In this document: positions 7,272 to 13,261 of the stretch, piece after piece
Layout: every line of letters starts with the position of its first letter
Position numbering within the stretch: position 1 is the first letter of the stretch
Source of the DNA: a virus
Lineage: Duplodnaviria; Caudoviricetes
DNA: 46,021 nucleotides
Virus record (IMG/VR): IMGVR_UViG_3300046323_000666
Location: 1-46,021 of that record
Direction: 5' to 3' (one strand)
The notes under the pieces: model-generated
Seen by the model: the letters and a program-made list of their open reading frames with translations, nothing else
What the model was told of the DNA's origin: nothing
The model's database searches: none
Position numbers and translations under genes: made by a program

Positions 7272-7388
7272 TAACGTTATCTCGCTTGGCTTAGTGCCGA
7301 GTTATGAAAACTAAATTATCTAATTAAAAATAAAACGTTATGAAAAACGATAAAAACGAAAATAAGGCATTGAGCCAAACGAGTGTTA
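7272..7388. repeat. attC-like site 1 (117 bp)
   Basis: TAAC 7272; arms CTCGCTTGGCTTAGTGCC (7281-7298) / GGCATTGAGCCAAACGAG (7366-7383); GTTA 7385. Confidence 0.85.
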
Positions 7389-7636
7389 GCAGTAGTATTA
7401 ATGCACTGATTTCTAAATTTGATAATGGATTAGAATTGTACCAAAATAATGCGGTTTTTGCAAATTGCATAGAACACTTATTACGAGGTGGAGATATTTA
7501 CAAAATGCTTGAACAAGTTGTAGTAATGCAAGATAAAACACAAGAAAAACTTACTGAACTTCTTTCGAGTGGGGCTTTAAGACAAGAAATTATAATTTCC
7601 AAAGATAAATTTGATGAATTATCGAGTGGTTTGTAA
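7340..7636 (+). CDS. Cassette 1 hypothetical protein (98 aa)
   Basis: Starts inside the site 1 loop; ends just before TACTGCTAAC. Confidence 0.75.
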   Translation: MKNDKNENKALSQTSVSSSINALISKFDNGLELYQNNAVFANCIEHLLRGGDIYKMLEQVVVMQDKTQEKLTELLSSGALRQEIIISKDKFDELSSGL

Positions 7637-7645
7637 TATTACTGC

Positions 7646-7717
7646 TAACAGGCGCGCGCTTTGCGCAGGCTTTGGAGCTTGCTCAAAGCGTGAGTTAGGC
7701 GAAGGGCGCGCCTGTTA
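7646..7717. repeat. attC-like site 2 (72 bp, GC-rich)
   Basis: CTAACAGGCGCGC / GCGCGCCTGTTAG perfect inverted repeat, with inner hairpin GCTTTGGAGC-TT-GCTCAAAGC. Confidence 0.8.
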
Positions 7718-7747
7718 GGCAAAAGGTGTTCGCGCCTTTTGCCTAAC
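7714..7747. repeat. Gene-less cassette body (34-bp hairpin)
   Basis: GTTAGGCAAAAGG-tgttcgcg-CCTTTTGCCTAAC. Confidence 0.8.
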
Positions 7748-7873
7748 GTTATGCAGCTACACGAGCGGTTGGGGCAAGAAAAGCCTAGACTTTCGGAGTT
7801 GGAACAGAACTTAAAAACAAGAACAAAAAATGGAATTAATAACCAAGCCCCAACTGTCGTGTAACTGCTGTTA
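7744..7873. repeat. attC-like site 3 (130 bp)
   Basis: Arms GCAGCTACACGAGCGGTTGGGGC (7753-7775) / GCCCCAACTGTCGTGTAACTGC (7847-7868), one extrahelical G; GTTA 7870. Confidence 0.85.
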
Positions 7874-7908
7874 TGCGGGGTTGTGGATGGTTAAAACAAA
7901 ATATTATT

Positions 7909-8208
7909 ATGGAAACAATTGCAATTATCGGACACGTTGACCGCGGTAAAACAACATTAACTGCCGCTATTAAAAGTGTTTTAGAACAAAAACATAGCGT
8001 GTATCAAGATGCTTTTGAAGAAGTAATTGAGTATAAAAATCCTTATGCTTTTCTAAACGAAAAACCAACGCCAAGTAAGTCAAGGTTAAATAAATGCAAA
8101 AAAGGGTTGCACGAATTTCAGGAAACAAATCACGACATAGTACAAGAAAATATGTTTGTAAAAAAATGGGCGTGTATGCATTGTGGTACTTTAATGCACG
8201 AAAGGTAG
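7909..8208 (+). CDS. Cassette 3 protein: EF-Tu-like P-loop peptide plus C-terminal Zn-ribbon-like motif
   Basis: IAIIGHVDRGKTTLTAAIKSVL; CKKGLH...CMHCG; ATG 7909 has an A-rich leader. Confidence 0.75.
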   Translation: METIAIIGHVDRGKTTLTAAIKSVLEQKHSVYQDAFEEVIEYKNPYAFLNEKPTPSKSRLNKCKKGLHEFQETNHDIVQENMFVKKWACMHCGTLMHER

Positions 8209-8218
8209 CAATCCTGCA

Positions 8219-8347
8219 TAACGTATCGTGGCTTTGTCTTGTTGCCGAAAAAATAAGACCTAAATTTTAAATTAAAAACAGAAAATGGAAAGTACAAAAC
8301 CAACATTAAATGAAGCCGAAAACGGCAATAAGTCAAAACCACTGTTA
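8219..8347. repeat. attC-like site 4 (129 bp)
   Basis: Arms GTGGCTTTGTCTTGTTGCCG (8228-8247) / CGGCAATAAGTCAAAACCAC (8323-8342); GTTA 8344. Confidence 0.85.
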
Positions 8348-10815: not shown

Positions 10816-10936
10816 CGGAAAAGATTGTCGTGGTTGGGATAAAACAAAAACTAATAATTAAATTTAAAACAAAACTGAAAGATGGAAAACAATGTAAAAG
10901 TTCAAGACGATACCCAATCACTACAATCGTGTGTTA
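10813..10936. repeat. attC-like site 8 (124 bp)
   Basis: Arms GATTGTCGTGGTTGGG (10823-10838) / CCCAATCACTACAATC (10913-10928); GTTA 10933. Confidence 0.85.
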
Positions 10937-11256
10937 GTGTTTCGGTTACGGATTCAAATAACGATTCCGAATATTATTATTTAGGAAGAAAAATTCTTGT
11001 ACAGCAAAATTTCACAAAAAAAGAAGATAGACCCTTTGATGCGTATTATCAAGCATTGAAATTTCTAGACGATAGAAATTATCATTCAGGTTCTTTAGCG
11101 GTTACTAAAAGCAACAATATTGCAGTGAAAAAGGATTACTATAATTTACCTGAAAAATGGCACAACTTAGATAAAGAAGATATTGCTTCAATTGATGGTG
11201 TAATTAGAAGTTCAGATTATAGAGAAGGTTTAGTTACCGTGATGTTGTTTAACTGA
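10882..11256 (+). CDS. Cassette 8 hypothetical protein (124 aa)
   Basis: Starts in the site 8 loop; ends at the next core. Confidence 0.8.
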   Translation: MENNVKVQDDTQSLQSCVSVSVTDSNNDSEYYYLGRKILVQQNFTKKEDRPFDAYYQALKFLDDRNYHSGSLAVTKSNNIAVKKDYYNLPEKWHNLDKEDIASIDGVIRSSDYREGLVTVMLFN

Positions 11257-11260
11257 ACAC

Positions 11261-11384
11261 TAACGTTTTTGCTATAAGACGGTTGGGTTATAAATTCCCT
11301 AAACTTCAAGCCAAGACCAAAACATTCGGATAGTCCAAATGTTTAAATTAATCACAATACCCAACTGTTTTATAGCAATTGTTA
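11261..11384. repeat. attC-like site 9 (124 bp)
   Basis: Arms TTGCTATAAGACGGTTGGG (11269-11287) / CCCAACTGTTTTATAGCAA (11360-11378); GTTA 11381. Confidence 0.85.
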
Positions 11385-11419
11385 TAAGGCGTTGTGGGTC
11401 ATTAAAAACAAAAGTTTTT

Positions 11420-12355
11420 ATGAATACTGAACAAAAAAATATAGTTGCTTTATTCGATGGAATGAGTTGCGGACAAATTGCACTAAATGATATTGGTTTT
11501 AAATACGATAATTATTTTGCAAGTGAAATCGATAAATACGCAAAAGAAGTCACTCAAAAAAACTTTCCAAACACTAAACAAATTGGAAGTGTTTTAGATG
11601 TAAAAGGAGAGGATTTACCAAAAACATTTTTAATGATGGGAGGAAGTCCTTGTCAAGATTTAAGTAGTTCAAATGTTTGGACTGAACAAAAAGGATTGGA
11701 AGGTAAAAAAAGTAGTTTGTTTTGGGAATATGTTAGATTATTGAATGAATTGAATCCGAAGTTTTTTCTACTTGAAAATGTAGGTTCTGCAAAAAAATCA
11801 GATATTGAAATAATTGATAGAGAATTAGGGGTAAAAGGAATAAAATTTAATTCTAAATTAGTTTTACCTCAAAACAGAAATCGTGTTTATTGGACAAATA
11901 TTCCTTTTGAATTACCTAAAAATGAAATGATATTGACAATGCAAGATTTGCTTGAAAAAGATGTTGATGATAAATATTACATTACTCAAAAAATGTATGA
12001 TTGCATTATATCTCCTGGAACTAAAGGATGGCAAAGTGGTAAAATGGAAATTGATTTAAGAATAGCAAGACCATTGACAGCGACAATGCATAAGATGCAC
12101 CGAGCCGATACTGATAATTATATTACAGGAATTGCACCCGAAGGAAAAACAAATGTAAGACGATTAACTCCAATAGAATGCGAAAGATTGCAAGGGGTGA
12201 AAGATAATTATACTCAAGGAGTTTCCGATACGCAACGATATAGAATGTTAGGCAATGGATGGACAGTTGATGTTATAGCACATATTTTCAAAAGTTTGCT
12301 AAATGAAGATTGCGAACCTACACCACGCTTTACTGAAAAAAGTTCTTATGGATGA
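11420..12355 (+). CDS. Cassette 9 DNA cytosine-5 methyltransferase
   Basis: Motifs LFDG, GSPCQ, ENV, QNRNR, RRLTP.ECERLQ, GNGW; likely start 11420 (in-frame ATG also at 11339). Confidence 0.92.
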   Translation: MNTEQKNIVALFDGMSCGQIALNDIGFKYDNYFASEIDKYAKEVTQKNFPNTKQIGSVLDVKGEDLPKTFLMMGGSPCQDLSSSNVWTEQKGLEGKKSSLFWEYVRLLNELNPKFFLLENVGSAKKSDIEIIDRELGVKGIKFNSKLVLPQNRNRVYWTNIPFELPKNEMILTMQDLLEKDVDDKYYITQKMYDCIISPGTKGWQSGKMEIDLRIARPLTATMHKMHRADTDNYITGIAPEGKTNVRRLTPIECERLQGVKDNYTQGVSDTQRYRMLGNGWTVDVIAHIFKSLLNEDCEPTPRFTEKSSYG

Positions 12356-12374
12356 CTTGTTTAGCAATGCCTTA

Positions 12375-12430
12375 TAACTACTATATGTATTTTTATATGT
12401 AAAACATCAATAAAATAAACACTTAACAAT
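12375..12430. other. Candidate attI-like primary recombination site
   Basis: Last TAAC core (12375-12378) has no partner hairpin; followed by TATATGTA direct repeats (12382, 12394) and the integrase ATG. Confidence 0.55.
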
Positions 12431-13261
12431 ATGGACATTCGAAAATGGTACGATAAGTATTCGATAGATATTCAATTAGTTTATGAATCAGAAGCTACAC
12501 AAAAAAACTACAAATCGCAAGTTTGGTGTTTTTTAAATTACTTTAAAAATGAGGTAGAACCAAAGTCAATCGACAATGAAAAAATTAAATTATGGTTATT
12601 GGAAGCGGTGACAATCAATAGTAGAAAACATAGGCTTTGCGCTTTAAATTCATTCTATAAAATCACGGTTGGAATGCCATCTAAAATCCAAAAAATTCCA
12701 TATCCAAAAAGCGAAAAGAAACTCCCAATAGTTTTAAGCGTTGAAGAAGTTCAAAAAATGTTTTCGGTATGTGAAAACATAAAACACAAAGTAATTTTAA
12801 GTTTGCTTTACTCTTGCGGTTTAAGAGTTTCAGAACTCATAAATCTAAAATGGTCGCACGTTGACCGTAGCCGAATGATTATAAATATTATCGCAGGAAA
12901 AGGAAATAAAGACCGTCAGGTCATGCTTGATACGTCGTTGATTCCTTTATTAGAAAAATATTTCTTTGAATACAAAACCAAAACTTATGTTTTAGGAGGT
13001 CAGTTTTCAGACCAGTATTCCGCCACAAGCGTAAACCAAGTTATGAAACAATTAGCAGAAAAAGCTAACATTAACAAACGAGTTTATACGCATTTAATGC
13101 GCCATAATTGTTTTACTCACATGGTAGAAAATGGAACTGATATTAATCTAATCCAGAAACTTGCAGGACATTCAAATGTAAAAACTACTTTGGTTTATAC
13201 GCACATTTCTCATAATTTAATAAGTAGAATACAGTCTCCTCTTGGGGCTATTAATATTTAA
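12431..13261 (+). CDS. IntI/XerD-like tyrosine recombinase (276 aa), candidate cassette integrase
   Basis: GLRVSE, GKGNKDR, HLMRH, GHS, VYTH catalytic residues intact; IntI-like C-terminal SPL. Confidence 0.9.
   Translation: MDIRKWYDKYSIDIQLVYESEATQKNYKSQVWCFLNYFKNEVEPKSIDNEKIKLWLLEAVTINSRKHRLCALNSFYKITVGMPSKIQKIPYPKSEKKLPIVLSVEEVQKMFSVCENIKHKVILSLLYSCGLRVSELINLKWSHVDRSRMIINIIAGKGNKDRQVMLDTSLIPLLEKYFFEYKTKTYVLGGQFSDQYSATSVNQVMKQLAEKANINKRVYTHLMRHNCFTHMVENGTDINLIQKLAGHSNVKTTLVYTHISHNLISRIQSPLGAINI

Follow-up and report, generated by a model that had tools for sequence, protein, structure and literature searches.

The 46,021-nucleotide stretch of DNA analyzed here (the window) is the entire IMG/VR virus record IMGVR_UViG_3300046323_000666 (completeness, 61%), and it carries virion, replication, and repressor-like genes and two integrases besides a tyrosine recombinase of 276 amino acids (aa). 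Leading up to the recombinase gene is an array in which hairpin sites, each running from a YAAC to a GTTR core, alternate with single cargo units (Table 1). All nine fold-back sites that an earlier note on this DNA had reported were found where it had placed them. An arm-pairing detector returned nine sites in positions 7201 to 12400, compared to zero or one in each of 20 dinucleotide shuffles, and zero on the plus strand in the rest of the window. The only Rfam match was a chance microRNA match at S2 (28.8 bits versus 92). There are indeed nine cargo units, but unit 2 has no gene in its 34-bp cargo; the others encode two C5-cytosine methyltransferases, one Dam-type methyltransferase, and five small genes without known function. 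Likewise, the array ends 52 bp before the recombinase gene, as had been claimed, but its last element is a half-site rather than a hairpin. The idea that structure and not sequence is conserved applies within the array, where pairwise site identity is 0.37 to 0.73 (0.82 for S5/S7), but not across phages. Among the loci sampled (L numbers), S5 has 24 relatives at ≥85% identity, 12 of them identical, with 20 upstream flanks and 12 downstream flanks, and S4 has 13 relatives at this threshold, the relatives of both having been sampled on purpose; S1, S2, S3, S6, and S7 have none at ≥85% among these loci.

Table 1. Features of the cassette array and its surroundings. Site positions run from AAC to GTT; the fourth column gives the same sites from YAAC to GTTR.
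Feature	Position	Strand	YAAC..GTTR	Remarks
Hairpin site S1	7273..7387	+	7272-7388	Loop contains cassette 1 start codon (open reading frame [ORF] from 7340)
Cassette 1 gene, 98 aa	7340..7636	+		No family found
Hairpin site S2, GC-rich	7647..7716	+	7646-7717	Without spacer asymmetry
Cassette 2 cargo, 34 bp	7714..7747			Gene-less, self-complementary; S2 plus cargo recurs AAC-to-AAC elsewhere
Hairpin site S3	7745..7872	+	7744-7873	Folding z, -3.2
Cassette 3 gene, 99 aa	7909..8208	+		N-terminal 30 aa EF-Tu P-loop-like, below cutoff, lead only
Hairpin site S4	8220..8346	+	8219-8347	Encodes 21-aa leader; in other phages, joined to numerous unrelated ORFs
Cassette 4 gene, 156 aa, phrog_10841 (function unknown)	8285..8755	+		Start within S4
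Hairpin site S5	8766..8853	+	8765-8854	Identical copies in other phages, cargo differing on both sides
Cassette 5 gene, C5-cytosine DNA methyltransferase, 307 aa	8918..9841	+		
Hairpin site S6	9870..9992	+	9869-9993	
Cassette 6 gene, 59 aa	10022..10201	+		No family found
Hairpin site S7	10234..10321	+	10233-10322	82% like S5
Cassette 7 gene, Dam-type N6-adenine methyltransferase, 152 aa	10357..10815	+		Stop codon overlaps next TAAC core
Hairpin site S8	10814..10935	+	10813-10936	Loop contains cassette 8 start codon
Cassette 8 gene, 124 aa	10882..11256	+		Same body with other hairpin-encoded leader in L138, L139
Hairpin site S9	11262..11383	+	11261-11384	92% copy with other flanks in L016
Cassette 9 gene, second C5-cytosine methyltransferase, 311 aa	11420..12355	+		35% identical to cassette 5
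Terminal attI-like half-site	12365..12390	+		Cassette 9 end, AAC (12376-12378), 5 bases, ATATGTA
Tyrosine recombinase, 276 aa, SAM_4-type N terminus	12431..13261	+		Intact
HTH_17 excisionase-like gene	6988..7221	+		At head of array; also in L003, L019
Flanking integrase A, SAM_5 type	5609..6853	-		Context; present in 2/44 recombinase loci
Flanking integrase B	13258..14451	-		Context; likely the phage's own integrase

Comparison with related phages showed that units were gained, lost, and reordered precisely at the cores rather than kept in a fixed order, which bears out the proposal of a cassette-shuffling platform. A good example of this is the pair L029 and L030, whose backbone blocks are 95 to 99.8% identical. 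They have four cassettes in common (99.7 to 100% identity) in a different order, and every shared block is bounded by TAAC at both ends; each order recurs in several contigs (L027/L030 versus L029/L031). Overall, 96 of 158 alignment ends fell within 6 nt of a core, where only about 5% of positions lie. L003 and L019 have the same backbone as the window phage, including both integrases and the excisionase-like gene, and none of its cargo genes. Among 54 cargo pairs that were ≥85% alike, which were drawn from 226 cargos in 141 loci and are not independent, only the upstream hairpin was kept in 11, only the downstream one in 0, neither in 9, and both in 34, the last group being mostly duplicate contigs. 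Because upstream-only pairs outnumbered downstream-only pairs 11 to 0, the mobile unit is the hairpin plus the gene downstream of it. Variants of the window phage itself were seen when contigs from four sequencing runs were compared with the window. In run X2, a joint between 10812 and 12375 dropped cassettes 8 and 9 from AAC to AAC; the eight longest pieces of this run match the window without difference, and depth fell from 46 to 23 to 13 over cassettes 8 and 9. In runs X3 and X5, an AAC-to-AAC joint between 11260 and 12375 dropped cassette 9. As a separate observation, one 195-bp cargo is present twice in the same array in L192 (100% identity). The GC-rich gene-less cassette 2 (7647 to 7747), possibly a regulatory element, recurs from AAC to AAC in L172 and L182, and a unit related to it adjoins the half-site in L019 (also in the comparison of L018 with L019).

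Further analysis of the cargo ends showed that the 11 bases 3′ of each GTT can pair with those flanking the following AAC at a mean of 9.4 of 11 positions, compared to a mean of 4.0 and a maximum of 8 for other pairings, a match reached by 0 of 200,000 permutations. Each cargo therefore bears its own terminal inverted repeat. Across 191 cargos, the resulting duplex is 15 bp long, with Watson-Crick pairs in 96 to 100% at positions 0 to 8, 98% at positions 11 to 13, and 77% at position 14, background level from position 15, and a G·T pair at position 10 in 182 of 191; these cargos were selected for 11/14 matches, a criterion that can produce neither the fixed G·T nor the edge. In all nine units, the site as it would exist in a cassette circle folds 3.5 to 11.4 kcal/mol better than the same site in the array. 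For the gene-less unit, the predicted fold includes the cargo-end stem; the formation of such a stem across cargos of 250 to 1000 nt is speculation. The 277 hairpins compared are also asymmetric. The spacer on the AAC side is 3 to 4 nt longer in 230 of them, G·T pairs outnumber C·A pairs by 541 to 157, and the coding strand is the better-folding strand in 211. Extrahelical bases are mostly absent: by the gap scoring used, on which these counts depend, 211 of 277 have stems free of bulges on either arm over the first 14 columns, and 15 have a right-arm bulge there, opposite the cleaved AAC. The spacer asymmetry, the G·T skew, the fixed wobble pair, the better folding of the coding strand, and the folding of the circle form together suggest that the folded coding strand is the recombination substrate. 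As an aside, an S5-family hairpin in L202 (818 to 905, minus strand) has its loop inverted relative to its arms and the neighboring gene, which suggests that loops flip between arms.

The AAC core is not the only site of exchange. Of 21 loci with the Dam cargo, 11 contigs could be mapped at 84 to 97% nucleotide identity, the other 10 being too diverged. Identity stopped at -1 to +2 of AAC in all 11, while at the left end of the 10 complete copies it started at GTT behind an unrelated hairpin in seven and an S5/S7-family hairpin was present in three. There is thus a second, slower exchange at GTT that replaces the hairpin, and a model of crossover at AAC only was abandoned on account of these swaps. 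A further model, in which hairpins are swapped via coding-strand cleavage 7 nt upstream of GTT, was ruled out by hairpins that are identical through GTT and carry different cargos. What the hairpin brings is often a start codon: an in-frame ATG is found in 73 of 119 long hairpins compared to 4 of 50 short ones. There is no single fixed frame, since the frame at GTT is 0 in 46, 2 in 27, and 1 in 4. In 15 of 19 loci (one duplicate), an ORF of ≥70 aa starts with the S4 leader; in L138 and L139, the body of cassette 8 follows another leader without a change of frame. From these sequences, we infer that hairpins often supply the codons at which translation of the genes starts. The loop of S3 has an ATG at 7830 whose frame differs from that of the cassette 3 gene (start, 7909); it is possibly left over from the leader of an earlier cargo.

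The recombinase beside the array lacks what sets integron integrases apart. R132, K157, H221, R224, H247, and Y256, which we take to be the catalytic residues, are invariant in 19/19, and the insertion specific to IntI (the I2 helix) is absent: 59 residues lie between R162 and H221, compared to 100 or 101 in IntI, and residues 177 to 198 align opposite residues 180 to 244 of the 2A3V chain, with about 42 IntI residues absent. The protein scored 158.6 bits with TIGR02249 (cutoff, 265), 165.8 with XerC (335), 164.3 with XerD (330), and 184 with XerA (220), placing it under every curated IntI and Xer cutoff. In a 50-row tree, it fell into its own phage/Bacteroidota clade (support, 97) apart from three Xer rows; this was a quick tree with an unresolved backbone, from which no order of events is claimed. 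The C-terminal SPL tail aligns with VchIntI4. XerA gave the top structure and sequence matches, and the fold search confirms the family only, because the catalytic C-terminal part is poorly modeled by AlphaFold (per-residue confidence score [pLDDT] of <50 at 221 to 235 and 249 to 276). There are at least 2360 relatives at an E value of 1e-40 or better.

Arrays adjoin homologs of this gene, as the earlier note had expected. Forty-four viral loci were found at 56 to 91% identity, and 41 were examined, L042 to L044 being dropped because the gene is at the contig edge. Sites lie upstream of the recombinase in 33 of the 41, with totals of 99 upstream and 14 downstream, and six of the eight loci without upstream sites have <500 bp of upstream sequence. 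The docking half-site is fixed: in 43 of the 45 loci (37 viral, 7 from genome bins, and the window), an AAC 52 to 70 bp upstream of the start codon is followed by its motif, whereas the bases to the left of AAC vary. A host-type version was found on a contig of Aurantibacter aestuarii (L088, 8740 to 15757), where an array lies 3′ of a 36%-identical short recombinase, with the same half-site motif and five cargos carrying the G·T signature in mirror orientation. These cargos are complete genes of 200 to 280 aa in classical polarity, and the non-coding strand folds better in three of the four hairpins folded. One or two mirror-signature cargos each were seen in L067, L068, L072, and L076 (32 genome loci examined). 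Apart from this, the alignment suggests that the recombinases of L016, L018, and L020 are mosaics in which a window-like part is joined to an N- or C-terminal part of more distant ancestry.

The array is a real, active-looking, integron-like system, and the recombinase likely has a role in the swapping. We consider it probable (about 0.72) that this is an integron-like cassette platform in which the adjacent insertion-less recombinase catalyzes exchange at AAC on the folded coding strand. The coding strand would fold while exposed as a single strand, and the recombinase would carry out a single-strand exchange between a pair of AAC cores. A circle would thereby be released, with its 15-bp cargo ends paired to each other, and would then reenter at the terminal half-site or at another AAC core. 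The choice of strand would be made by the fixed G·T pair and the 3- to 4-nt-longer spacer on the AAC side; neither the I2 helix nor extrahelical bases would be involved. Without I2, a second exchange might be prevented by the spacer asymmetry or by a preformed four-way junction. If the other strand were used now and then, cleavage would fall at GTT, and the gene would acquire a new hairpin and, where that hairpin is long, a new in-frame start and leader. Statements from cited papers refer here and below to the parts of their text available to us. For GTT swaps through the other strand there is a precedent, since deleting the extrahelical bases lets IntI1 recombine both strands (PMC5027507). 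The purpose may be to renew an early-gene operon with orphan methyltransferases (three of nine units) that shield the phage from host restriction.

However, several points weigh against this interpretation. Folding was expected of all sites and held for seven (z of -2.2 to -4.7), but S4 (z of -1.0) and S8 (z of -0.6) as whole sites fold no better than shuffles because of their long A-rich loops; their arms nevertheless make stems of 16 to 20 columns. The short sides of the AAC joints in the sequencing runs are only 26, 26, and 88 bases, and all of these joints are marked "between: not known." Moreover, AAC-to-AAC joints are only 2 of the 15 listed, the remaining ones linking related hairpins or methyltransferase genes. 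Some exchange also occurs inside cargos: the interior of cargo 6 (10008 to 10193) is replaced in the contigs of all four runs. No cassette circles were seen in the contigs, the only material examined. L009 has the half-site and no hairpin detected in 10 kb. In 40 records chosen for cassettes, the recombinase was found in only 2, and in 1 of the 17 that are ≥90% complete; this count left out four loci known to hold the recombinase, and a control found all four and the cultured phage Leef_1. Therefore, most phage arrays need the enzyme in trans or are frozen. Finally, catalysis by this recombinase is a prediction, and the I2 helix, which the phage enzyme lacks, is described as what permits single-strand recombination (PMC7790495). 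Two side observations also concern cargo 6: its interior is replaced in L001 as well, and 84% copies of its 59-aa gene occur in two loci without detected hairpin sites, L129 and L130.

The scarcity of the enzyme raises the question of whether cassette movement is chiefly the work of a host-encoded relative acting in trans, the phage copy being optional or a passenger. Sixteen of the 17 near-complete cassette-bearing phage records are without the recombinase family, the Polaribacter phage P12002L has sites and no annotated integrase, and the short recombinase, half-site, and mirror cargos of L088, with similar cargos in L067, L068, L072, and L076, provide a possible source; a host relative may indeed act in trans. 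We nevertheless regard movement mainly by this route as unlikely, as the phage gene is intact, keeps a set spacing to a conserved half-site (43 of 45 loci), and belongs to a family of ≥2360 relatives. The phage-encoded and in-trans routes may both operate. An ordinary double-stranded, Xer-like exchange at AAC boxes, with the hairpins riding along as RNA leaders or terminators, would account for the missing I2 helix, the XerA matches, and the start codons in long hairpins, and G·T pairs suit RNA folding too. It is very unlikely, though, because partner sites do not share the bases 3′ of AAC, and two-strand exchange normally requires a matching spacer. In addition, the cargo-end duplex with its fixed G·T bridges 250 to 1000 nt of coding sequence, and in the circle form, which folds better in 9/9 units, it makes the site complete; RNA structure also leaves unexplained why the non-coding strand folds better in L088.

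The AAC and GTT cores and the site lengths would also fit a canonical cluster of attC sites lacking an integrase (CALIN), served by IntI and unrelated to the neighboring recombinase, and IntI1 did recombine one P12002L site (PMC9892861). This is scarcely plausible given that 211 of 277 hairpins have no bulge in the first 14 stem columns and that the sites are tightly linked to the 276-aa recombinase family; the hairpin-type P12002L site yielded no verified IntI1 junction in the available text (PMC9892861), and complete integrons are rare in Bacteroidetes (PMC9024848). The least credible alternative, at close to negligible odds, is mosaicism by homologous recombination or assembly error. The relatives are all metagenomic assemblies, shared hairpin families could seed crossovers, and joints also occur between the two related methyltransferase genes. 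However, only 4 to 7 bases are common at the junctions, each cassette order is present in several contigs, and Leef_1, which is in culture, has the same anatomy.

The integron-like platform thus preferred works like an integron and fails IntI membership, because the insertion, the extrahelical bases, and the cassette polarity were each tested and none agreed with it. The earlier suggestion that the sites work as attC sites do holds for core exchange, but not for the polarity, which is reversed, the hairpin families with start codons, or the enzyme, which is not IntI. As in integrons, a tyrosine recombinase with intact catalytic residues adjoins one fixed docking site and a fold-back array of AAC..GTT sites, crossover occurs at AAC, likely on the better-folding strand, the cassette ends are complementary in the circle form, and content and order vary at the core. 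Unlike in class 1 and sedentary chromosomal integrons, the enzyme has no IntI insertion, the stems are mostly without extrahelical bases, and the sites have the 15-bp cargo-end duplex with its fixed G·T and the 3- to 4-nt spacer asymmetry. Also different are the hairpin, which precedes the gene, travels with it, and often gives its start codon; the cassette genes, which point toward the docking site; and the secondary exchange at GTT.

In print, the closest parallel is the attC cluster without an integrase in P12002L (Qi et al. 2023; PMC9892861). It has six sites of the same type and polarity on the coding strand near methyltransferase genes, and a single methyltransferase gene lies between two attC calls termed "divergent," whose last seven bases are identical and in opposite orientation, like the cargo ends here. 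It has no annotated recombinase and was interpreted as ordinary attC sites for IntI, and the available text describes no cognate enzyme, half-site, polarity, or leader donation (PMC9892861). In the "reverse" integrons of Treponema, the recombinase and cassette genes are co-oriented as here, but intI is transcribed toward attI and was found by IntI searches (PMC3607928, PMC4889954), whereas the phage recombinase gene follows the array and its transcription leads away from the half-site, which is 52 bp 5′ of its start. The L088 array has the Treponema layout but a short enzyme. Xer recombinases differ in that the phage enzyme forms a separate clade below their cutoffs, and for the "integron-like" subgroup of simple tyrosine recombinases, the available text reports no cassette array for insertion-less members (PMC8138268). 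Leef_1, a cultured Polaribacter phage, has the same array anatomy beside a 33%-identical enzyme; in the available text it is described with two integrases and without mention of "integron" or "cassette" (PMC8776804). The second integrase of Ingeline_1 had no array by the arm-pairing detector, and PMC11054128, as far as its available text goes, concerns diversity-generating retroelement (DGR) cassettes and was set aside as irrelevant. No description of an insertion-less recombinase with such arrays was found in the full-text literature searched, outside which most subscription papers lie.

The I2 helix is held to be an innovation for integron single-strand recombination, and intermediates are noted as lacking (PMC7790495). 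A short enzyme tied to visibly shuffling hairpin cassettes makes this claim directly testable with an existing assay, and a cultured carrier exists in Leef_1. If our interpretation is true, a gene-capture system is added to a phylum in which IntegronFinder finds almost no integrons, phages gain a way to refresh anti-restriction methyltransferases, and a 276-aa structure-directed recombinase becomes available. A broader and doubtful extension is that this is a sister system of integrons across Bacteroidota phages and their hosts, with an enzyme lacking I2, intermediate between Xer and IntI, that acts on folded single strands. The 15-bp cargo-end duplex would then preform a four-way junction with two hairpins, to be resolved in one exchange. 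Since either core is usable, the hairpins would be interchangeable start and leader modules and the genes bodies, from which proteins are assembled combinatorially. It would also represent a living form of the intermediate that has been called missing.

A temperate Bacteroidota phage, as proposed earlier, is a likely source, though likely only, judging from the temperate-type gene content and the closest genome-bin relatives of the recombinase. These are mostly labeled Bacteroidota, the best being an uncultured Flavobacterium (80%), and they may be prophages or misbinned phage contigs. The sequencing runs with at least half of positions 7000 to 13300 (4 of the 24 listed, one possibly the source) are freshwater metagenomes. 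No RNA run was among those listed to contain it, which is uninformative about expression. Among the cargos, the cassette 3 protein has its EF-Tu-like P-loop motif first (gene start, 7909 to 8000) and Cys/His residues near its end in only 99 aa; atlas matches for cassettes 3 and 8 score <0.9 and are leads only. A promoter and terminator scan was at chance level (32 sigma-70 matches versus 28.9), hairpins showed no enrichment on the coding strand, and position 6953 gave one match to what we take to be the Bacteroidota -7 motif. In the virion module, a 3427-aa ORF (22753 to 33036, minus strand) is almost without PHROG match.

Around the array, integrase A is dispensable for arrays elsewhere. It and the divergent excisionase-like gene at the array head (5609 to 7221) are conserved in L003 and L019, and three tyrosine recombinases lie within 9 kb. 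ARAGORN found no tRNA gene in the window. Upstream of integrase B, positions 14455 to 14510 hold an inverted repeat and a short stretch, presumably resembling a tRNA 3′ end, that together make a candidate phage attachment site.

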